Assembly (NCBI GenBank): GCA_013166835.1
Contig: JABLTI010000070.1
Span: forward strand, 1 to 14,713
Reading direction: 5' to 3'
DNA: 14,713 nt
Source: Promethearchaeati archaeon
GTDB taxonomy: Archaea > Asgardarchaeota > Heimdallarchaeia > JABLTI01
Positions 1-12,001 of this stretch are shown here, piece by piece. Both the position numbers and the translations under genes were made by a program. Numbering within the stretch: position 1 is the stretch's first letter; each line of letters opens with the position of its first letter. The notes below the pieces were generated by a model that had not been told where the DNA came from, made no database searches, and was given only the letters and a program-made list of their open reading frames with translations.

Positions 1-131
1 AGATATAAAAAGGTTTAAGTTTGTTACTGAAACAAACCTTAATATTATTTTTTTGTTGAATCATATAGAAACTTAAAATAATGTAAATGCCTTATATAAT
101 ATTGATTAGCTTATTTGTGGTGATGGGAGCT

Positions 132-1301
132 ATGAAAAGGAATAAAATTAATGTGAGAAATAAAAGGGATATAATTTCGAAAATAACTTTGTTAGTTATT
201 TTAACTATTGCATTTATTACAATTTCAACTTGTAACAAAGCACTTGTTGTTTCAGGAAAATATGTAATGAAAGAACACAATTCTATTCTATTAGATGATG
301 GTGAGAGTGGATTTATTTTATATATACATGATGATATTGCATTCATCGTAATTCAAAATGCTTCTCAAGTGATTGAGGATACGAGTAGTTTACATTTAAT
401 TAACGTGCAACAACCTGAAAATCCAGTTCGACTTGGAATTTATGACATTGCCATTCATTATCGTATTCCAAAACTTATAGTGAATGATAATATTGCATAT
501 CTATTAAGAGAAAAATCTCATTCAGGTAATTATAATTGGACAGTAACACTGCTAAATATTGATAATTTACAAGTTCCAGCTTTCTTAGGGGAAACATTGT
601 TGGAAAACAAAACTATTCCTTCTGATTTTACTCTTTATAATGATTATTTGTACGTTAGTACGAATTCTTCATTAGATATTTTTGATTGCAGCAATCCATC
701 GTCTCCTGTGAAAGCTGCGAATTACTCATTGCCTACTGGGTATGTGCATATCAACAATGATTTCTTGTACATAGTTTCTGATTTCGTAAAAATATATGAT
801 TTAGCAAATCCTATTAATCCTATCTTTTTGGGGGAAGTCAATAGTACTAAGCACACCTTAGCAGGAAGCGGGTTGTATAAGAACAATATAATCTCGGCTT
901 TCTGGTGGTCAGGTTTGCAAAGTTATAATTGTACTGAACCATCTACTCCTACAATTATTGGCAATTATGGGTTTCCTGCTGATGAAACTGAACCTGGTGG
1001 ACAAATCCATGACATGGAGATTCAGGGAGATCGGTTGTTTGCTGGAGGACGAAAACTATTTGTTTTTGATATCAGTAATCCACAAAAACTTCAAAGGATT
1101 GCTGTGAAATACATAGGGAGCCGAGACACATACGGTATCTCTGTATCAGGTAATTACATTTTTGCAAACATTCACAATAACATCAAAGTATACTACTTTA
1201 GTGAGAGTTTTCTTGAACGCAATTTAGGATTAGGAATTGGAATTGGTATAACAGTTTTGATTGGAGGTTCTCTCACTCTTCTAAGGAAAAAGAAGAAGTA
1301 A
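132..1301 (+). CDS. Membrane-anchored extracellular LVIVD-repeat (beta-propeller-like) protein
   Basis: Repeated motifs LHLINVQQPENP, LDIFDCSNPSSP, VKIYDLANPINP and LFVFDISNPQKL. N-terminal hydrophobic signal segment; C-terminal TM helix followed by RKKKK. ATG at 132 follows GTGGTGA/GGGAG and is preferred over the ORF-track start at 87. Confidence 0.85.
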   Translation: MKRNKINVRNKRDIISKITLLVILTIAFITISTCNKALVVSGKYVMKEHNSILLDDGESGFILYIHDDIAFIVIQNASQVIEDTSSLHLINVQQPENPVRLGIYDIAIHYRIPKLIVNDNIAYLLREKSHSGNYNWTVTLLNIDNLQVPAFLGETLLENKTIPSDFTLYNDYLYVSTNSSLDIFDCSNPSSPVKAANYSLPTGYVHINNDFLYIVSDFVKIYDLANPINPIFLGEVNSTKHTLAGSGLYKNNIISAFWWSGLQSYNCTEPSTPTIIGNYGFPADETEPGGQIHDMEIQGDRLFAGGRKLFVFDISNPQKLQRIAVKYIGSRDTYGISVSGNYIFANIHNNIKVYYFSESFLERNLGLGIGIGITVLIGGSLTLLRKKKK

Positions 1302-1782
1302 ATAACATGGATACTATTAAGAGTCCAAACAACTATTTCTTCTTTTCTTTTTTTGTATAAGGAAAGAGTGGATATTATAATATCTACAAAATAAATCCTT
1401 GATTGAATAATAAATTAGTCCTTTCTTGATTATTTTCTATATGGTTTCTAATATTATCTACTGTTTCAATAAGAGAGGAATTCAGAGAAGAACAATCGAG
1501 GATCAAGTCAATTTTTCTTCAGCAAAAAACTCTCTCTTAAAGAAACTATTTGCTTTTAAGAATTATTAATTTTTCTTGAACAATATTAATTTCTTTTTAA
1601 AAGCAACTTACTTGATAATTCTAAGTAGAAAATAATATGTTTAAGGAATTTCTTAGTGAGTGGAATAAAAGAGACTAAATTATTTCCATTTTTCCTTTCT
1701 TTTTTGCCTTGATATTTTATGTATAGAAGGTTAATTTTAAAGAGGAAAAATGCTATAATATATTGTACTGGGGTAGGCTTAA

Positions 1783-1974
1783 ATGACCAGAAAAAAGTAT
1801 TGTCACGTGTGTGGAGCAGAACAAGTGAGAGGATGGGGTAGGAAGCAAAAATTGGAACCAACACAAAAAAAGAAATATCATAGTTCTAAGAGAAGAAAAG
1901 TAATTAATCTTCTTCTAATGCTCATACACTTTTCCAAAGAATTCTCTTCTTTGAATCAAGATTTATCTAATTAG
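1783..1974 (+). CDS. Possible small basic protein with one CxxC knuckle (may be a remnant or spurious)
   Basis: GGGGTAGG just upstream of ATG; begins MTRKKYCHVCG; no second Cys pair; tail looks non-coding. Confidence 0.3.
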   Translation: MTRKKYCHVCGAEQVRGWGRKQKLEPTQKKKYHSSKRRKVINLLLMLIHFSKEFSSLNQDLSN

Positions 1975-1980
1975 AACTGG

Positions 1981-1994
1981 TAACAGTACTGTTA
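1981..1994. repeat. Perfect 14-bp palindrome TAACAGTACTGTTA
   Basis: Read directly from the sequence; function unknown. Confidence 0.6.
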
Positions 1995-2090
1995 ACATAA
2001 TCGACATTATTAGATTTATTACAAAATATATCCGATCACATCATCATCTCTTTTGTTGATTTTATACCTTCACTCTGTCTAACTACAAGT

Positions 2091-2111
2091 GTTGTAAAAT
2101 TATTTTACAAC
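2091..2111. promoter_or_regulatory. Inverted repeat GTTGTAAAAT-T-ATTTTACAAC, candidate protein-binding site
   Basis: Perfect 10-bp arms with a 1-nt spacer, about 30 nt before the structured segment. The regulatory role is inference. Confidence 0.5.
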
Positions 2112-2138
2112 TCAAAGTTTTCTGAGAGAGCATCAAGA

Positions 2139-2275
2139 ATTCCTCACTACGCCCGAGGAATCAGAAGACCACGGGCGTGGGTTTCCCGAGGGTGGAAGCG
2201 TTCAGCGGTTCTCCTTGGGTTCTGCTTCTCTCTTTTGCTTCTAATCATTAATTAGAAGCGTTGTTTTGTTCTTTA
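2139..2275 (+). ncRNA. Candidate structured RNA or ssDNA origin: H-type pseudoknot, long hairpin and terminator-like hairpin
   Basis: Stems 2139-2145/2155-2161, 2147-2154/2173-2180, 2185-2192/2212-2219 and 2237-2245/2251-2259. The non-Watson-Crick pairs in these stems are G-U on the + strand. Confidence 0.45.
2237..2274 (+). terminator. Hairpin GCTTCTAAT-catta-ATTAGAAGC followed by a T-rich run
   Basis: Perfect 9-bp stem, then GTTGTTTTGTTCTTT on the + strand. Confidence 0.4.
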
Positions 2276-2285
2276 TGCGTTGTTC

Positions 2286-2564
2286 CTATTTGATTCTTCT
2301 ATATGTTCCAGATTCCACCTTCGCTAATAATCCATCTGCAACCAATTTATCTAAACTGTATTCTATTATAATCCATTCACTTGGTTTATACATAATTTTT
2401 GAATCTGTGGTATCGTTTTCGACTTTTCTCTTAAGCATAACTTTCCACTCAAACTCATCATTTACATTAATTTTTGTTTGAATGATCTCTTCCAATTCTT
2501 TTGCACGTATTTCTATTTTCTCAGCACTCGGTGAGACAATCGTTTCATGATTTTTTTCTTTCAT
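2286..2564 (-). CDS. Small winged-helix-like DNA-binding protein (92 aa)
   Basis: C-terminal IIEYSLDKLVADGLLAKVESGTYRR fits the wHTH recognition helix plus wing pattern (L..L...G.l..v..G.Y). GTGA ribosome-binding site and a TATA box upstream. Confidence 0.65.
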   Translation of the reverse strand: MKEKNHETIVSPSAEKIEIRAKELEEIIQTKINVNDEFEWKVMLKRKVENDTTDSKIMYKPSEWIIIEYSLDKLVADGLLAKVESGTYRRIK

Positions 2565-2597
2565 TTTTAATCACTATTTTAACAAAAAAAATCGGAG

Positions 2598-2614
2598 TTA
2601 TATAAACTTTCACG
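2598..2614. promoter_or_regulatory. Archaeal TATA box, palindromic TTATATAA (2598-2605), between the divergent wHTH and histone genes
   Basis: On the - strand it reads CGTGAAAG-TTTATATAA (BRE-like plus TATA), about 34 nt before the wHTH start. The core is usable in both directions. Confidence 0.55.
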
Positions 2615-2664
2615 ACCAAAGTTGCCTTTTTATTTCTCTTTCCTTACTTCTTTTTGTGATTGTT

Positions 2665-2895
2665 TTGTCCTCTAAGAAAACTCTAATCCCTACTGGTACT
2701 GTTAAGCGAATTATGAAGGAAACCACTGGTATGATGATCAGTGATGCGTTCGCTGAAGACGTTGCTCAGAAAGCCACGGAATTCATCGTTACCGTTGCTT
2801 TGAAAACGAAGGTTTATGCTGACCATCACAAGAAACGAATTCTTAAGAAGAGCATGTACGACGTCATCGAATTAGCCGAGAGAATGAACGGGTAA
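2665..2895 (+). CDS. Divergent archaeal-type histone-fold protein
   Basis: LIPTGTVKRIMKETTGMMISD...ADHHKKRILK...DVIELA aligns by eye with HMfB-type LPIAPIGRIIKDAGAERVSD...ARHAGRKTIKAEDIELA. TTG at 2665 preceded by GTGAT is preferred over GTG at 2656. Confidence 0.8.
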   Translation: MSSKKTLIPTGTVKRIMKETTGMMISDAFAEDVAQKATEFIVTVALKTKVYADHHKKRILKKSMYDVIELAERMNG

Positions 2896-2897
2896 CT

Positions 2898-3794
2898 TCA
2901 CACCCGACTGGCATGCTCATAATACCCTAATTTTTCTTTAAAGTTTTTAATCCCATGGTAACTTATGATCTCGCTTACCTCTAACTCTAATATCGGTTTA
3001 TTCTCATCTACCTCTGCTTTCAGATTGTATTTCTGAATTCCTCTCCTCGCTTTGTCGAGGTCTCGTTTGAACGGAACAATAACAACGAAGCGTCCTTTCC
3101 CTTTCAGATGATTTTCCGCTGACAATAATCTGGTAATAAACACGTCCTCGTCGTATCCCTCAGCTCCAGTATGCACTTCGAACCAGATATACTCTTTCTT
3201 ATTATTAACTAATACGCGATGACAATTATCAGCGATGTAGTCTCCTTTCCCGTGCCAATGCGGAATCTTGCGACGAGAAGAATCAGTAGTCGTTATCTCA
3301 TCCTCAGTTAATCCTTGTTGGAGCTCTCGGAAACACCAATTACTAAAAACATCGTGATGAGGAAACGGTCTTCGAAACTTGCTCGGAACTAAGCGGTAAG
3401 GAGAACACGTTGGATACCCGAACCAATGCTCGAAGCGAACACCAAGCTTTGGCATAGGATAAGCTGAAACCAAACCTAAACGAAAGATACGAATCGAACC
3501 TCGAAGCGAACCAGTCGGGGAATAATACTCCCTATCAGCGTAGCACTCACCACTGTACAAGTGATTAAACAAACTATCATTCGAAAGATTACCGAGGAAA
3601 TCACCAAAGCACTCGTGAAGAAGAAAAGAGAAGTCATCCTTACTGAAAAGAGGACGTTGAAGAATCATATCAAGAAATTGTAGCTCAGAACTGGAAAGTA
3701 AATTAAAGGGAAGAGAACGAGCTGTCGGAGAACTAACACTACTCCAACCAGTCGGAAGTTTTGGCACAGAAGCGGAAGGGGAACGCTGAAACAC
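2898..3794 (-). CDS. Replication-relaxation (Replic_Relax)-like PD-(D/E)xK nuclease
   Basis: Ordered motifs HHDVFSN, YIAD and WFEVHTGAE resemble the family's H-D/xx, PD and ExDxGTE motifs, followed by the beta-strand FVVIVP. GTG at 3794 after GGTG is preferred over TTG at 3851. Assigned by eye, no HMM. Confidence 0.6.
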   Translation of the reverse strand: MFQRSPSASVPKLPTGWSSVSSPTARSLPFNLLSSSELQFLDMILQRPLFSKDDFSFLLHECFGDFLGNLSNDSLFNHLYSGECYADREYYSPTGSLRGSIRIFRLGLVSAYPMPKLGVRFEHWFGYPTCSPYRLVPSKFRRPFPHHDVFSNWCFRELQQGLTEDEITTTDSSRRKIPHWHGKGDYIADNCHRVLVNNKKEYIWFEVHTGAEGYDEDVFITRLLSAENHLKGKGRFVVIVPFKRDLDKARRGIQKYNLKAEVDENKPILELEVSEIISYHGIKNFKEKLGYYEHASRV

Positions 3795-3804
3795 GACAAG
3801 TAAC

Positions 3805-4013
3805 ACCAATAAAGAGTCTGAAAAAAGAACTAAAAAGACCACGAAAAACAATCAGTCAGAAAGTCAAAAAGTCACTTAAAAAAAGAACGAAAAAAAGCAA
3901 AAAAGAGACTTGGAAACAAGAAGAAAAAAAGAAGGAATCAAGAGAAAAAACAGTCGAAAAGTCCCTAAGAAAAAAGCAAACAAAAGAAAGAATCCCTTAA
4001 GAAACACGAAAAG
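3805..4013. repeat. A-tract-rich low-complexity block with recurring (C)AGTC/AAAGTC motifs
   Basis: Hand count of 37 A in 60 nt at 3841-3900. CAGTCAGAAAGTCAAAAAGTC (3853-3873) and CAGTCGAAAAGTC (3951-3963). Confidence 0.6.
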
Positions 4014-4688
4014 AGCCATGGACCCATGGTGAACTTGTTAATTGATGATCTTCCAGAATATGTTGAAATTGTTAGAGGGAATCCAAGACCAACAAGTATG
4101 GTCAATGGTGTTGAAGGGTGCGATGCAGCAATTTTCTTAGGATATCATGCAAAATTTGGAACAGCTAGATCAACTTTTGATCATACTTACAGTGGAGGAA
4201 GTATTCATAATTTGGAAATTAATGGTATTCCAGTTAGTGAGTTCTTATTAAACGGTTATACTGCTGGAGACTATAATGTTCCCGTCATAATGGTTGCAGG
4301 AGATGCTCAGCTAATAGAGGACGATATTAAACAATATGCCCCTTGGATTGAAACAGTAGCATTGAAATATTCTCTTAGCAGACTTGCTGCAAGGAGTAAA
4401 AGCATGATTACAATAGAAAAGGAGCTTAGAAAAGCAGTTCAAGTTGCGGCTAAGAAATTCAAGGATAAGAAAATGAAACCACTAATTGCAGAAAAAGAAG
4501 TTAAAGTGGGCATCACTTTTCGAACTAGTTTAATGGCAGATACCGCAGAATTACTCCCAATAGTTAAACGAATAGATGGGCTAAAAATAGAGTACACAGC
4601 TAAAGACATGATTGATGCCTATAATATTTTTCAATTATTAGTAGCTGCAGCAAGCGGAACTAATGCAATGATGCAATGGTTACAATAA
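4014..4688 (+). pseudogene. dppA: 5'-truncated M55 family D-aminopeptidase (DppA-like)
   Basis: Frame reads S-H-G-P-MVNL from 4014 and contains GYHA, HTY, SE and GD motifs. The N-terminal ~55 aa with the DxEG metal ligands and the Asp of DSHG are absent, replaced by the A-rich block. Confidence 0.8.
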
Positions 4689-5987: not shown

Positions 5988-6119
5988 ATGAGTGAAATAG
6001 ATTGTCCTTGTCCAAAAGTTGAATGTGAAAGACATGGAAATTGTGATGAGTGTGAGGAAAACCACACATCAAAGGGAGCATTACCTTTCTGTAAGAGAGA
6101 AGAAGGTGATAAAAATTAA
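5988..6119 (+). CDS. Small Cys/His-rich protein, DUF6485-like (43 aa, not in ORF track)
   Basis: Manual translation MSEIDCPCPKVECERHGNCDECEENHTSKGALPFCKREEGDKN*; pattern CxCxxxxCxRHGxCxxCxxxH...LPxC. Confidence 0.8.
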   Translation: MSEIDCPCPKVECERHGNCDECEENHTSKGALPFCKREEGDKN

Positions 6120-7104
6120 AGTATTAGTAGTTCGACCCACATTAGCTGAATGGTTGGAAAAACATAAGGATTCAATGCCAGAAAATATTGAATTGATTGT
6201 TCCGAAAGAAGGAACCGATGAGGAAATTGAGGAGCTCATTCAGGATGTTGAGATTGTAGTTTGTACTCGATTATCTGCAGAAGCAGCAAGAAAAGGTAAA
6301 AAATTGAAGCTCATTCAGAAGACAGGTGCAGGGGTTGATGCTATACCTTTTGATGCAATAAGAGAGGATATCATTGTTGCTAATACATCTGGAGCTAATC
6401 CAGTTCCTTTAGCTGAAGGAACTATTGCATTAATGATTTCGCTCGCAAAAAAAATACCTCAAAAAAACAGATCATTCCCTGATAGAGTTGTTCTTAGAGG
6501 AACAGAACTTCGAGGGAAAAAAGTTGGAATAATTGGATTGGGAAGCATTGGGCTTGAAGTTGCGAAGCGCCTACAAGCATTTGAAATGAAGATTCTAGGT
6601 ATTAAAAGAAAACCATTAGAGAAACTGAAAGAAGAATTAAATCTTGAATTCTTGGGTGGATCCGATGACCTAGACTATGTTTTGAAAGAAAGTGATTTTG
6701 TTATAGTTATTGTTCCACTTACTCCTGCCACTCGAGGTATGATTGGAGAACGTGAATTAAAATTAATGAAACCTACAGCTTATCTGGTTAATGTTGCAAG
6801 AGCAGCTATAATACAAGAAGAACCATTGTATCGAGCAGTGAATGAAGAGTGGATTGCTGGTGCAGCACTTGATGTTTGGTGGATTCCTCATTGGTGGGAT
6901 CCTAAATGGGGACCTGAAATTGATAAACCTTCTAGATATCCAATTTGGGAATTGCCAAATGTAATTGCTACTCCTCATAACGCAGGGTTTGTTGAACGAA
7001 CAAAACATTCAGATAGAGCTATACAAATTATTGCTGAGAACATTCAACGCATTGCTAAAGGAAAAACTCCGTCAAATCTGGTGGATAAAGAGCATCAATA
7101 CTAA
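6106..7104 (+). CDS. D-isomer-specific 2-hydroxyacid dehydrogenase
   Basis: GAGVD, GIIGLGSIG, LVNVAR, AALDVW and TPHNAG motifs. True start is probably GTG 6106 or ATT 6115, not 6019. Confidence 0.92.
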   Translation: MIKIKVLVVRPTLAEWLEKHKDSMPENIELIVPKEGTDEEIEELIQDVEIVVCTRLSAEAARKGKKLKLIQKTGAGVDAIPFDAIREDIIVANTSGANPVPLAEGTIALMISLAKKIPQKNRSFPDRVVLRGTELRGKKVGIIGLGSIGLEVAKRLQAFEMKILGIKRKPLEKLKEELNLEFLGGSDDLDYVLKESDFVIVIVPLTPATRGMIGERELKLMKPTAYLVNVARAAIIQEEPLYRAVNEEWIAGAALDVWWIPHWWDPKWGPEIDKPSRYPIWELPNVIATPHNAGFVERTKHSDRAIQIIAENIQRIAKGKTPSNLVDKEHQY

Positions 7105-7118
7105 AGCTTGGGATCTTT

Positions 7119-7829
7119 TCAAACCTCTTTCTTCAAACGAAGGAAAAGGAAATGAGGATTAGATAGGAGACTCTCATAGATTCTTGCATCAACCTCTTTT
7201 GCTTCGGGAATTGGAAATGGTTCTAGTAGAACATCTACAAAGAAGCCATTTTTCCTAAAAATTGCAAACATATTAGTCAAAGTTCGATGATAATATTTCA
7301 CTGGATAAGATTTCCCATCAATAATCCATGTTTCTTCGTAAAGTTCTTTCTTAAAGTAATTTGTTTTATTGAGCCACTTCCAGTCAGCATGAGGATGATG
7401 AACAGAAATAACTATTGAACCATCTTTCTTGAGAATTCGTTTGAATTCACTGAAAACAGGCAACCAATTGTTAATGTAATGAAGAACAAGAGAAGCGATA
7501 ATCATATCAATGGAATTTGACTCAAGGAAATTCAAAGGTTCCGAGATATCAGCAATCAAAACTTTGGCTTTTTGACCCAACTTTTTCTTGGTATATTTTA
7601 CCATTTGTTCACTAATATCACAAGCTGTAACAGAAGCTCCTTGATCTACTAACCACTCAGTTAGAGAACCACCACCACAGCCCACTTCGAAAATCTCTTT
7701 ACCTTTTACATCCCCAGCTAATGAAATAATTGCTGGTTGATTATAGTAAGCATTATGGACACTTTGTTTACTTTTTCGAATATAAGCTATACCCATTTCA
7801 TTGTAGTTTTTATCTGGTTCAGCATTCAT
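7119..7829 (-). CDS. Class I SAM-dependent methyltransferase
   Basis: EVGCGGG, DIS, SLVLHY, RILKKDG and HP motifs. Confidence 0.92.
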   Translation of the reverse strand: MNAEPDKNYNEMGIAYIRKSKQSVHNAYYNQPAIISLAGDVKGKEIFEVGCGGGSLTEWLVDQGASVTACDISEQMVKYTKKKLGQKAKVLIADISEPLNFLESNSIDMIIASLVLHYINNWLPVFSEFKRILKKDGSIVISVHHPHADWKWLNKTNYFKKELYEETWIIDGKSYPVKYYHRTLTNMFAIFRKNGFFVDVLLEPFPIPEAKEVDARIYESLLSNPHFLFLRLKKEV

Positions 7830-7943
7830 AAGTTATCTTTGTTTTTGTTTTTAAAAAGTGCTTCTAATAGATAAAGAAATACCCTTTCATCAATATTTAT
7901 GTTAGTATTATTTATTAGTGATATTTACTATAAATCATTCCAA

Positions 7944-9063: not shown

Positions 9064-10149
9064 CTACTCTTTCTTATCTGTTGATTCATCTTCGGTATCT
9101 TTTTTGAGGAGTTTTTTCTTTATTTCGCCAGCTGTCTTTTTCAATCCGGTATAGATTTCATCAGTTGTTTTTTCAAAGGATTCTTTCATGCCTTTTGTAG
9201 AATGCTTAAAGCCTTCTTTTGCTCGAGTAGTAACTTTCATTTCAGGTTCAGGGATTACTGCTTCCATTAGATTGACAGGCGGTGTGTGAACATCACAAGG
9301 ATGAAGATTTGTATCAGCATTTGGTGAAAACCCATCATTTTCCAACCATTCTTTGGCTTTCGCATATGATTCTTCAATTAATTGTTTTGATTTGGAGAAA
9401 TCATGTGGTCCAACATCAATGCAATCTGGTGGAGGGATTATAATTAATTCTACCTTATCTTTATAGAGTTGTATATCAGTGGCTAACTGACGATTGAGAA
9501 GAAAAATGAAGGCACGTATAAGTACTTCTGCAACAGTCCTTGGTTCTTGATCTGCAGAAGGAACACCAATTGGGAAAACTACAACACGTTCTGCTCCTAA
9601 TCGAACAGCAGTAGAAATTGGGGAATTATTTACCATACCACCATCAACAATTGAATAATTGTGCATACGTTGAGGAGGAAATACACCGGGAATAGCCACA
9701 CTACACATCAAAGCTTCTAGAGCTAATCCTTTATTGAAAACAACCTCTTGTCCACATTTAATATCTGTGCCAATTATATACAAAGGTAATTTTGTTTCCT
9801 CTATTCGAGTGAATTCCATATTTTCGGTAATAAGTTTACGTATATTCTTTGGGGAGATAAGATTTAAACCAAAAGTAGTGATGCTTAAAATAGGTGTAAT
9901 TGGTGAAGGAGAGAAAACATCCCACACTTTAATGTTAAGCCAAACATCCTCAATTGCTTTTACTCCCTCTAATGTTGGGTTATAAGCATACATTGCACCA
10001 TTCAAGCTACCTACTGATGTTCCTAAAACCATGTCAGCTTGAATATCATGCTCTACAATAGCTTTTAGGGCACCACATTCGACTGCTCCTAAACTTGCCC
10101 CACCAGAAAAGACAAAAGCAGTCTTTGGATTATTGGAACGTTCCTTCAT
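9064..10149 (-). CDS. Patatin-like phospholipase
   Basis: SGGASLG, GTSVG nucleophile and DGG motifs. Start moved to ATG 10149 to avoid overlap with the ABC gene; charged C-terminal tail. Confidence 0.92.
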   Translation of the reverse strand: MKERSNNPKTAFVFSGGASLGAVECGALKAIVEHDIQADMVLGTSVGSLNGAMYAYNPTLEGVKAIEDVWLNIKVWDVFSPSPITPILSITTFGLNLISPKNIRKLITENMEFTRIEETKLPLYIIGTDIKCGQEVVFNKGLALEALMCSVAIPGVFPPQRMHNYSIVDGGMVNNSPISTAVRLGAERVVVFPIGVPSADQEPRTVAEVLIRAFIFLLNRQLATDIQLYKDKVELIIIPPPDCIDVGPHDFSKSKQLIEESYAKAKEWLENDGFSPNADTNLHPCDVHTPPVNLMEAVIPEPEMKVTTRAKEGFKHSTKGMKESFEKTTDEIYTGLKKTAGEIKKKLLKKDTEDESTDKKE

Positions 10150-10189
10150 AAGAATTAATTTATTTTGCTTACTTAAGAAGATTCTTTTT

Positions 10190-12001
10190 TTAATCAGAAA
10201 ATACTTCACTAATCTCTGAAATCCATTCAGCGGATTGGTGTTTGAAATAGGTTTCATAAAGTTCTGAGTATAATCCACCATTACTCATTAAAAGAGCATG
10301 ATTTCCTTCTTCAACAAGCTCCCCTTTATCTAGAACAAGTATCCTATCCGAGTTCTGAATGGTAGTTAAACGATGAGCAATAACGATAGAGGTTCTGTTA
10401 GCAAGAAGATGGTCAAGAGCTTCTTGAATTTTTGATTCTGTGTACGCGTCTACCGCTGCAGTGGCTTCATCTAAAATCAATATTTTCGGATCAGTTAATA
10501 GTGTTCGAGCAAATGAAATCATCTGTCTTTGACCCGCAGAAAGACCTTTTCCACGTTCACCGAGTTCAGTTTCTAAGCCTTCAGGTAAGGCATCAATGAA
10601 TTCTTGAGCAGCAACAATATCAAGGACTTCATTGACTTCTTCAATGGTAGCGTCTGGTCTGCCAAATCTAATATTATCAAGAACGGTTCCACTAAAAAGA
10701 AAAACATCTTGACTAACTAAACCAATTTGTGAACGAAGATGTTGTATATCATAGTCACGAATATCAACACCATCAATTTTGATTGAACCGTCCTTTATAT
10801 CATAAAATCTCATCAATAAGGAAGCAATAGTAGTTTTACCTGCGCCAGTATGTCCAACGATAGCAATTGATTCGGTGGGTTTTATATCAACATTAATGTT
10901 CTTTAAGACGGGTTCATTCGGGACATATTCGTGATTTACACTATCAAATGTGATGCGTCCTTTAATTTCTTTGAAAACAGGATTCTCTGGATTCTTCACA
11001 ACTTTTTCTGCATCTACTATGCTGAATATCCTCTCCATGGCAGCAAATCCACTTTGGACTGTTGAAATCTGTGAAGCAACTCGAGCAAGTGGATAAAGAA
11101 ATCTATTCAATAGGAGAATGAAGAATATAATTGTTGAAGCTGAAGCTAAGTTTTGGATTACTAACCATCCACCAAACAGATTGATACTAAATATACTTAG
11201 CACACTAACACCATCCAATACTGGCCAAATACCTGTAAGAGCTAAAGCTCTTCTCCTCGCAATTTGAAATGTTGCATTATTTATTACTTCAAACTCTTCT
11301 TTGGATTTTTCTTCTCTACCAAATGCTTTTGCTACGGATATTCCAGAAACACTCTCTTGAAATGAAGTGTTTACTTCTGCAATGGCTGCTCTCCATTTCC
11401 CGCTTGTTCTTCTGGAAAACCTTCTGAACATGAATGCTGCAATAAAGACCACTGGACCCATACCTAATGTTACAAGCCCTAATTGCCAATTAACAGCAAG
11501 CATTATTCCTAAAACTGAAAAGACGATTACAAAATTCGAGACAAACTGTCCAACAACTGTAATCATATTATTTAATTCTTGAGAATCATTGGTAATACGA
11601 GACATAATTTCTCCTGTTGCTTGAACATCAAAGAACCCTAGATCGTGTTCTTGTAAACTTATGTAAGTCTCCATTTGTATTCTTTTAATCACTTTTTGCG
11701 TAACAATTGCTACTAGAACACCTTGAACTACTTGAAGTACCCATAAAAGGAGGTTTATACCTACATAAGCTATCGCGTAAGGTGCGATAGATATCCATTC
11801 ACCACTAGATTCCAAAATATCGTATACTCTTTCAACCATTAAGGGAGGAACTATACTGATTCCAGAGATTGCTAAGATAGTGAGAATAATGAACACCATT
11901 TGTAATTTGTAAGCCATGAGATATTTCCAGAAGCGACCAATTAATTCTCGATCTGCATATTTTATGCTATAATCACTTCGGAAACTTTCCATTTTTGCCA
12001 T
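10190..12001 (-). CDS. ABC exporter fused permease/ATPase subunit (MdlB/TmrA-like)
   Basis: TM domain plus GHTGAGKT, LSAGQ, LILDEAT and IAHRL. Confidence 0.95.
   Translation of the reverse strand: MAKMESFRSDYSIKYADRELIGRFWKYLMAYKLQMVFIILTILAISGISIVPPLMVERVYDILESSGEWISIAPYAIAYVGINLLLWVLQVVQGVLVAIVTQKVIKRIQMETYISLQEHDLGFFDVQATGEIMSRITNDSQELNNMITVVGQFVSNFVIVFSVLGIMLAVNWQLGLVTLGMGPVVFIAAFMFRRFSRRTSGKWRAAIAEVNTSFQESVSGISVAKAFGREEKSKEEFEVINNATFQIARRRALALTGIWPVLDGVSVLSIFSINLFGGWLVIQNLASASTIIFFILLLNRFLYPLARVASQISTVQSGFAAMERIFSIVDAEKVVKNPENPVFKEIKGRITFDSVNHEYVPNEPVLKNINVDIKPTESIAIVGHTGAGKTTIASLLMRFYDIKDGSIKIDGVDIRDYDIQHLRSQIGLVSQDVFLFSGTVLDNIRFGRPDATIEEVNEVLDIVAAQEFIDALPEGLETELGERGKGLSAGQRQMISFARTLLTDPKILILDEATAAVDAYTESKIQEALDHLLANRTSIVIAHRLTTIQNSDRILVLDKGELVEEGNHALLMSNGGLYSELYETYFKHQSAEWISEISEVFSD

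Follow-up and report, generated by a model that had tools for sequence, protein, structure and literature searches.

The window, i.e., the whole stretch of DNA analysed here (14,713 nt), is the entire contig C181 of G000, a Heimdallarchaeota metagenome-assembled genome of 3.56 Mb in 260 contigs with a GC content of 33.7%. Its positions 2109-4013 contain a cassette that consists of a nuclease-like gene, a histone-fold gene, the ORF92 gene (in this lineage) and a structured repeat of about 130-190 nt. We tentatively favour the explanation, while placing it short of probable, that this is an accessory cassette of one genus, which makes up the conserved right-hand module of an island that is variable and about 4.4 kb long, and encodes a nuclease-fold DNA-processing enzyme with a small cofactor. 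The observations behind it are the architecture of the cassette, the recurrent pairing of the nuclease-like gene with a small partner gene, a patchy multi-copy distribution with decayed copies, an exact break in an M55 peptidase gene at the right end and the coexistence of inserted and empty alleles. The nuclease-like gene family is previously undescribed. Among known archaea, Heimdallarchaeia belong to those most closely related to eukaryotes; their mobile DNA and the roles of their histone variants are, to our knowledge, poorly understood. The locus presents an association, seen repeatedly in accessory DNA, between genes for a histone fold and a nuclease fold, together with a structured repeat that has no known family and a naturally polymorphic insertion. 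Relatives of the window proteins are labelled Candidatus Heimdallarchaeota in public records. Below, related genomes are labelled G081-G090, loci are labelled L and sequencing runs X. The cassette comprises the following features (ORF, open reading frame):

2109-2297, core 2118-2251, plus strand: conserved structured repeat (covariance model, 137.7 bits in the window)
2286-2564, minus strand: ORF92 gene (92 aa), encoding a small winged-helix-like protein; the least certain cassette gene
2656-2895, plus strand: histone-fold gene (79 aa)
2898-3851, minus strand: nuclease-like ORF (open frame of 317 aa)
2898-3791, minus strand: the predicted winged-helix-like and PD-(D/E)xK protein of about 297 aa within this frame, which is open to 3851; most homologues start near 3791
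3792-4013, no strand: purine-rich tract (A-rich on the plus strand) upstream of the nuclease-like gene; 3835-4013 is the conserved right end of the inserted block

A preliminary description of this DNA, made from the letters alone, had proposed three tightly packed genes, with the histone and nuclease genes convergent and their stops 2 nt apart, and the ORF coordinates agree with it. Its statement that some 1.9 kb is compositionally distinct holds for two of the genes. The GC content is 42.5% in the nuclease-like gene and 42.1% in the histone gene, versus a genome mean of 33.7% (standard deviation 2.7%, 900-nt windows), and just 0.15% of 11,213 genome windows of 900 nt reach the value of the nuclease-like gene. 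It fails for ORF92 (30.8% GC) and the A-tract (31.3% GC), which are compositionally ordinary for the genome. The A-tract proposed for the right end is clearly present: positions 3641-4013 contain 72% purine and 51% A on the plus strand, a bias equalled in 9e-5 of 34,743 windows. The heavily base-paired left end was also confirmed, with a minimum free energy of -57.3 kcal/mol and a z value of -4.09, none of 200 shuffles being as stable. As the preliminary description had noted, no integrase or transposase is in view: none of these families was found by the Pfam scan of 17 window ORFs, or in ORF119 on contig C258. No tRNA or tmRNA was found in the window. The extra copies that had been envisaged were not encountered, the nuclease-like, histone and ORF92 genes each being single-copy in G000. 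A lysine-rich ORF of 79 aa (window 3761-4000, plus strand) spans the A-tract and shows 62% identity over 64 residues in G087 (tblastn); it is probably a by-product of base composition, not a gene.

The large protein has no Pfam family at E ≤ 0.1, no NCBIfam or PHROG match and no match among PDB sequences at E ≤ 10. The search of 1.84 billion representatives with the family profile returned solely the family itself, which comprises 26 proteins at E ≤ 0.001; another library holds 23 family clusters at 90% identity. A tblastn search of plasmid records (72,556) and phage records (50,697) likewise gave no match. The AlphaFold2 model, built from a 22-sequence alignment, has a mean predicted local distance difference test (pLDDT) value of 82.6, and its residues 130/162-308 align with PD-(D/E)xK nucleases (VIA-align, 48,161 chains; 52 chains with Z ≥ 5). 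Among the matches listed, the best 50 of 52, nearly all are PD-(D/E)xK nucleases. The top ones are Cdn1 (Z 8.2, root-mean-square deviation 3.6, 115 residues) and the XisH-family protein 2okf (Z 8.0, 111 residues), followed by Can2 (Z 7.9), Bax1 (Z 7.7) and many restriction enzymes, NucS, VRR-NUC and TnsA; Z values of about 8 are middling by the tool's own scale. The Foldseek search against PDB gave no match at E ≤ 0.001, yet its list is enriched in PD-(D/E)xK nucleases. Residues D205, E222, H224 and E228 are invariant (numbered on P0001, which begins 3 residues inside the ORF). In the model, D205 and E222 lie on the expected adjacent strands, and the third motif position is taken by the invariant H224 where K is canonical. 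Because the match list is uniform and D205...E222-x-H224 is invariant, it is reasonable to assign the C-terminal half of the modelled protein to the PD-(D/E)xK restriction-endonuclease fold. The N-terminal 160 residues, modelled alone, gave a pLDDT of 69 and matches with Z 3.6-5.2, the best being 5.2. Their match list is dominated by winged-helix domains (TFE, ORC2, Fur, MarR, ArsR), and the model weakly suggests that this half is winged-helix-like.

The family was found in 8 of 400 Asgard genomes, namely G000, six of the ten others of the genus and one of 31 of the neighbouring family, so it is not a core gene family of relatives, which had been raised as a possible objection. Each genome contains 1-5 matches, some of them with internal stops or fragmentary. 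Since the genomes surveyed are 64-92% complete, some absences are uncertain. Between G000 and G083, the ratio of nonsynonymous to synonymous substitution rates (dN/dS) is 0.078 for the nuclease-like gene and 0.072 for the histone gene, at dS of 1.12 and 0.98, which indicates strong purifying selection on both sequences.

The partner genes were counted in the 12 nuclease-family loci with a readable 3' flank. In six of them, the nuclease gene and a histone-fold gene are arranged tail to tail, -4 to +20 nt apart, and the co-occurrence of the two genes elsewhere, on which the preliminary description depended, was thus found. The six histone partners were recognised as follows:

The window: Pfam PF00808
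L002 (G083): 88% identity to the window histone
L011: tblastn, E 2.9e-7; no Pfam match of its own at E ≤ 0.01
L013: tblastn, E 2.7e-13; no Pfam match of its own at E ≤ 0.01
L063: tblastn, E 1.3e-8
L019: Pfam, E 7.6e-11

Two further loci, L007 and L014, carry an AbrB/MazE-fold gene in the position of the histone (Pfam MazE_antitoxin, E 1.5e-5 for one of them), and no small partner gene was seen beside the nuclease gene in L006, L015, L016 and L025. The proposed histone nature of the 79-aa protein was upheld by a PF00808 match with E 3.9e-7 and 30.7 bits, against a cut-off of 21.4. It stays under the cut-off of the NCBIfam model archaea_histone (NF043032), with 18.5 bits versus 50. G000 holds two PF00808 matches only, and its canonical histone scores 51.3 bits versus about 30 for the cassette histone. 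In the alignment, the cassette histones have a K-K-[RK]-[ITV] stretch, which we take to be the DNA-binding loop of the histone fold, where the canonical histone of the genome has R-K-T. The histone-fold proteins of the paired loci are 72-91 aa long and have no obvious extra toxin-binding tail. A complex predicted for the nuclease and a histone dimer scored 0.01 (mark 0.32), a result that counts neither way. In L019, an ArdC-N/M78 gene adjoins the nuclease-histone pair. In L058 (G081:C11, 6361-11021), one nuclease-histone pair is accompanied by an ArdC-N/M78 gene and a DUF4145/HEPN gene, and this cluster borders directly on ribosomal protein genes (uS10 and L3-L4-L23-L2).

ORF92 has no Pfam, NCBIfam or PHROG match and is restricted to the lineage of the window and G083, where the orthologue is 69.6% identical. 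It evolves fast (dN/dS 0.59 versus G083). Its structural neighbours in the ESM Atlas are winged-helix domains (template modelling score 0.54-0.66), in agreement with the small winged helix-turn-helix protein of the preliminary description.

The repeat at the left end of the cassette is known in 11 copies, eight found with the covariance model in 5 of 12 family genomes and three found by a pattern scan in metagenomes; two of the former are further copies in G000, on contig C139. The homology covers window 2133-2297 with L028 and window 2109-2255 with L063. The conserved core is about 130 nt long, and 65 nt of it are almost invariant. Between invariant stems, one hairpin loop differs among the copies in sequence and in length (3-11 nt), and T-runs occur downstream of the core. 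The fold is more stable on the plus strand than on the other strand (z -4.09 versus -3.41), and two constant G-U pairs and three pairs that toggle between G-C and G-U are sensible on the plus strand only. Covariation is at the level of shuffles, 241-313 of 500 shuffles reaching the observed values (likewise with 8 copies), so the proposed structure rests on thermodynamics, the variable loop and the strand-specific G-U pairs. No conserved TATA-like box was found at a fixed distance upstream. The Rfam search gave nothing at E ≤ 1 for the whole window, and for positions 2090-2290 it gave seven matches at E ≤ 10, whose scores of 12.6-16.7 bits all fall below the gathering scores (32-80). A nuclease-family gene is situated 57-650 nt from five of the 11 copies, always convergent with the repeat (the window, L002, L006, L015/L028 and L063); a possible sixth case, on a 6862-nt contig of run X2, is taken as a lead only. 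The remaining copies adjoin unrelated genes. The repeat may be a small RNA gene or a DNA site recognised by a protein.

In L006, a tRNA-Leu gene precedes the repeat by 15 nt on the same strand. At 6002-7928 of this locus, a TnpB gene (OrfB_IS605 and Cas12f1-like TNB), tRNA-Leu(CAG) and the repeat stand in a row on one strand; the pair of TnpB and tRNA-Leu genes without the repeat also occurs in G081 and G086. The identification of the repeat with a TnpB omega-RNA or the right end of an IS200-IS605 element was rejected: only one of the 11 copies (L006) is near a TnpB gene, and the other TnpB copies match to query position 542 at most, the block between being the tRNA-Leu gene.

The right end of the cassette coincides with the break in the M55 peptidase gene. 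The features of the inserted block and its target that lie in the window are:

145-4013 (3869 nt), no strand: right-hand part of the 4415-nt block; window 1-144 overlaps the end of contig C258
87-1301, plus strand: LVIVD-repeat beta-propeller protein with signal/anchor, cargo of the block (PF08309, E 1e-10)
1783-1974, plus strand: ORF63, the 5' remnant of a gene that is intact in G089 (167 aa); window 1748-1833 matches L032 2756-2671 with 83.7% identity
4026-4688, plus strand: M55 (DppA-type) peptidase gene without its first ~59 codons (220 aa; PF04951 profile positions 63-263 of 264)

Homology to the full-length M55 genes of G089, G084, G085 and G090 starts exactly at 4014, in the codons for S-H-G-P-M, in agreement with the broken host gene at the right junction of the preliminary description. 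An M55 orthologue is present in 7 of the 11 genus genomes; the open frames are 282-304 aa long in G089, G084, G085 and G090 and 234-253 aa in G000, G083 and G087. The N-terminal remnant of the M55 gene, including the start codon, was found on C258 at 10132-10210, where it is followed by unrelated sequence. The final 144 nt of C258 match window 1-144 exactly, and this stretch occurs in no other contig. Because this overlap is unique, the inserted block extends from C258:10211 to window 4013 (4415 nt). It contains a 119-aa ORF, the LVIVD propeller gene, the gene remnant, the repeat and the three cassette genes. This changes two points of the preliminary description: the block starts at C258:10211 and not at 2091 or 2140, which had been given as the insertion boundary, and the DNA that interrupts M55 is not a self-contained element of 1.9 kb, since it is 4415 nt long and includes the LVIVD gene and other ORFs. 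G089 represents the empty site: its left and right flanks join at L056:4514. The ends of the block (340 nt each) share no inverted or direct word longer than 8 nt, which is the chance level for terminal repeats.

G087, and G083 from window 3835 on, have the same right junction as the window. In G083, the homologue of window 3835-4013 stands beside a truncated M55 gene and is followed by about 2.7 kb and then by the cassette. This extra DNA, between the A-tract and the nuclease gene, encodes an S9 peptidase and a membrane protein. The idea that the cassette occupies a different context in G083 was rejected: contigs C35 and C61 join via a split S9 peptidase gene, and the locus is syntenic. The left junction of G083 is situated 9 nt earlier and leads into unrelated large genes, including one for a DUF87/HerA-type ATPase. 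As G083 shares the right end and differs elsewhere, the right end of the island is conserved and the rest variable. Several independent indels and an inverted membrane gene distinguish G083 from G089 in this region, and the empty-site comparison of L006 indicated replacement by unrelated genes, without clean boundaries. The M55 gene shows dN/dS of 0.025-0.075 at dS of 0.24-0.50 among G000, G083 and G087 (truncated) and G089 (intact), i.e., strong purifying selection. To judge by these ratios, either the truncated M55 still works or the truncations are recent and independent.

The state of the insertion in the population was assessed from assembled contigs, not from reads; X1 and X2 are runs flagged as possible sources. 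Two contigs of a separate study (X5 record 23 and X6 record 29) bridge 4013/4014. Since these are independent, the junction is no assembly chimera, a possibility that had been raised at the outset. The coverage shift anticipated there was also detected: contig depth changes from 16.2 left of 4014 to 34 right of it in X1 and from 33.2 to 68.5 in X2. In both runs, the loose end before 4014 reads as uninterrupted M55. The doubled depth and the intact M55 at the loose end indicate that inserted and empty alleles coexist at about 1:1. The flanks shared by the two alleles assemble as one contig for about 10.8 kb. These contig data are compatible alike with excision, recent insertion and a mixture of strains.

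In the explanation that we tentatively favour, the large protein would be the site-specific DNA-processing enzyme of the island. Its winged helix would bind DNA, and its nuclease half would nick or cut the structured repeat or the end of the island, by analogy with the action of MobC/Replic_Relax-type relaxases at an origin of transfer. The small partner, with a histone fold or, in one lineage, an AbrB/MazE fold, might be a DNA-bending accessory factor of the kind that acts with relaxases and integrases. If the nuclease does process the repeat with the help of the histone, a histone would be employed in a new way, and the island would represent a new type of mobile element in archaea. A more specific version sees in the protein either the archaeal equivalent of MobC/Replic_Relax relaxases or a nuclease-type integrase of a new kind, with the repeat as origin of transfer or attachment site and the histone as DNA-bending cofactor. 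It would imply a new class of mobilisable or integrative islands in Asgard archaea and a histone recruited into a mobile-DNA machine; we regard it as decidedly unlikely.

The comparison with Replic_Relax bears directly on this version. Replic_Relax (PF13814) comprises MobC-type relaxases with a restriction-endonuclease fold and replication-relaxation proteins encoded by Gram-positive plasmids. In PMC3424549, Replic_Relax proteins are described as usually fused to helix-turn-helix (HTH) domains and are recorded for Bacillus/Clostridium and Actinobacteria; PMC5357655 lists PF13814 as the MobC relaxase superfamily. The large protein, with its winged-helix-like N-terminal and PD-(D/E)xK C-terminal halves, matches this architecture of a winged helix or HTH followed by a PD-(D/E)xK domain, as given in PMC3424549. 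Further likenesses are the position of the gene at the end of accessory DNA beside a structured conserved site and the presence, in some versions of the island or paralogues, of a DUF87/HerA-type ATPase (G083) or ArdC-N (L019). Unlike Replic_Relax, the protein has no hidden Markov model (HMM) match, an archaeal host and a histidine for the lysine of the motif; the window contains no coupling protein, and nicking and an origin of transfer are putative here. None of 22 family members matches PF13814 (cut-off 25.3 bits) at E ≤ 10. PF13814 likewise matches none of 83 genomes of the class, including G000, and 14 control genomes are equally silent, so this search is not validated. Of the 30 clusters that the feature search of the ESM Atlas places nearest, 7 belong to the PF13814-bearing set, and the cluster shown (0.93) has PF13814 in 17% of its members, which serves as a lead only. 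The link to Replic_Relax thus comes only from the architecture and this language-model lead, and of the Replic_Relax nuclease named in the preliminary description the PD-(D/E)xK C-terminal fold is retained and the family membership is not. As far as folds are concerned, most of the parts named in that description hold good.

Other known systems share parts of the locus. The best structural matches of the C-terminal half are XisH-family proteins (2okf, 2inb), Cdn1, Can2 and Cap4, with Foldseek E of 0.03-0.2; identity to them is 9-14%, and the window protein differs by having no CARF or SAVED domain and a winged-helix-like N-terminal half. The cassette histone resembles the archaeal nucleosomal histones (HMfB type, PF00808) in exceeding the HMM cut-off and in its usual alignment pattern, and differs from them in its far lower score, its location in accessory DNA and its tail-to-tail arrangement with a nuclease-like gene. 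The island is similar to gene-interrupting and tRNA-adjacent islands in having an empty site in a relative and in the population, one conserved end with a putative processing gene and variable cargo, and one paralogous cassette (L006) lies directly 3' of a tRNA-Leu gene. It departs from integrative elements in that tyrosine and serine recombinases are absent, the junctions lack direct repeats and the left end is not conserved. Full-text searches on Heimdallarchaeal histones, nucleases and mobile elements, passages from the main text of PMC11390915 and papers that mention Replic_Relax brought up no histone-nuclease pairing.

A number of observations weigh against the explanation that we favour. 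The block is without terminal repeats longer than 8 nt, and its left end is not conserved between G083 and G000. Movement of the cassette itself was not seen, the G083 cassette being still syntenic with that of the window, and the copies in L007 and L014 are syntenic across two families. The dS between G000 and G083 is 1.12 and 0.98 in the cassette versus 0.46 in the flanking M55 gene, and this excess, with a dN/dS of about 0.07, would fit long vertical residence. The M55 remnant on C258 has a 93-nt deletion relative to G089 and G083 that creates an in-frame stop, and such decay would argue for an old insertion. The 1:1 depth could come from two co-existing strains instead of excision. For six of the 11 repeat copies, the available flank contains no nuclease gene (one of these copies, L062, lies at a contig end), and only 4 of the 12 paralogue loci have a strongly pyrimidine-rich stretch (fraction ≥ 0.73 over 250 nt) upstream of their nuclease-like gene. 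The large protein has no HMM connection to Replic_Relax or any other family and carries histidine in place of the lysine of the D...(D/E)xK motif. The enzymatic and DNA-binding roles and the transcription of the cassette are putative.

Four other explanations were considered. The cassette may be an addiction or defence unit, in which a toxic or anti-invader PD-(D/E)xK nuclease is combined with a small DNA-binding antidote or controller and rides islands with no role in moving them. Such a unit would account for a nuclease with interchangeable small DNA-binding partners, one of which matches Pfam MazE_antitoxin, and for the patchy, multi-copy distribution with decayed copies. It would also suit the neighbouring HEPN-type (L016), DUF4145/HEPN (L058) and RAMP (L059) genes and the CRISPR- and CBASS-linked effectors Cdn1, Can2 and Cap4 among the nearest folds. 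Against this, the genes face each other instead of being co-transcribed, an uncommon arrangement in toxin-antitoxin pairs, the short histone-fold proteins have no obvious toxin-binding tail, and the recurrent, orientation-fixed linkage to the repeat is left unexplained. We consider this explanation somewhat unlikely; if correct, it would add the histone fold to the known range of such controllers. The cassette might instead represent ordinary lineage-specific chromosomal genes, for a repair or chromatin nuclease and a variant histone, in a rearrangement-prone region where M55 was broken by rearrangement. The strong purifying selection (dN/dS 0.07-0.08), the synteny kept among G000, G083 and G087 and that of L007 and L014 across families, the lack of terminal repeats, integrase and transposase, and the indels and inverted membrane gene between G083 and G089 all agree with it. 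It is harder to reconcile with the absence from 4 of the 11 genus genomes and 392 of the 400 Asgard genomes (some of these absences being uncertain at 64-92% completeness), with 1-5 copies per genome, some of them frameshifted or fragmentary, with a GC content of 42% against the genome mean and with inserted and empty alleles on identical flanks; we hold it to be unlikely.

The other two explanations concern smaller units. The preliminary description had proposed that window 2091-4013 is by itself a minimal mobile element, autonomous and similar to a plasmid, satellite or transposon. The unit from the repeat to the purine tract does recur with fixed orientation in five loci, and its right end is the M55 break. 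However, 2.5 kb of other genes separate its left end from the N-terminal remnant of M55, the three genes are single-copy in G000, and the plasmid and phage records searched with tblastn gave no match, which makes an autonomous element of this size very improbable. The repeat, for its part, could be the gene of a small non-coding guide or regulatory RNA that forms a ribonucleoprotein with the nuclease-like protein. The stronger fold of the plus strand, the constant G-U and toggling pairs that fit this strand alone, the variable hairpin loop between invariant stems, the T-runs after the core and the position 15 nt downstream of tRNA-Leu on the same strand in L006 are as expected of an RNA gene. 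Covariation at the level of shuffles, the lack of a TATA-like box at a fixed distance and the six of 11 copies without a nearby protein gene are not; the near-invariant core would fit a protein-recognised DNA site equally well, and none of the 22 runs examined is an RNA run holding the stretch. We judge an RNA gene of this kind to be quite improbable.

Several further observations were made on copies of the repeat and on the left part of the window. In L001 (G000:C139), direct copies at 391-520 and 4274-4404 flank a 3.7-kb segment that encodes a 269-aa membrane protein and an 843-aa ORF resembling, by eye, a secreted protease; the second copy is situated about 200 nt upstream of an isolated gene that resembles, again by eye, uS19. 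In L032 (G089:C165, 1501-2170), a full repeat and a partial 5' copy (window 2109-2169, 79%) lie about 500 nt apart and flank a 114-aa ORF. The position that the three-gene cassette occupies in G083 is taken in G089 by a PRC-barrel gene and an inverted membrane-protein gene. In the metagenome locus L064 (898-2875), the repeat directly follows an LVIVD propeller gene, without the 800-nt spacer of the window, and is followed by a 490-aa P-loop ORF that resembles by eye the DUF87/HerA ATPase of the G083 island. The non-coding stretch 1451-1578 of the window shares 82% identity with L002 5791-5923, which follows a DUF3644 gene in G083, and is the only other stretch of the left part of the window that is conserved in G083.

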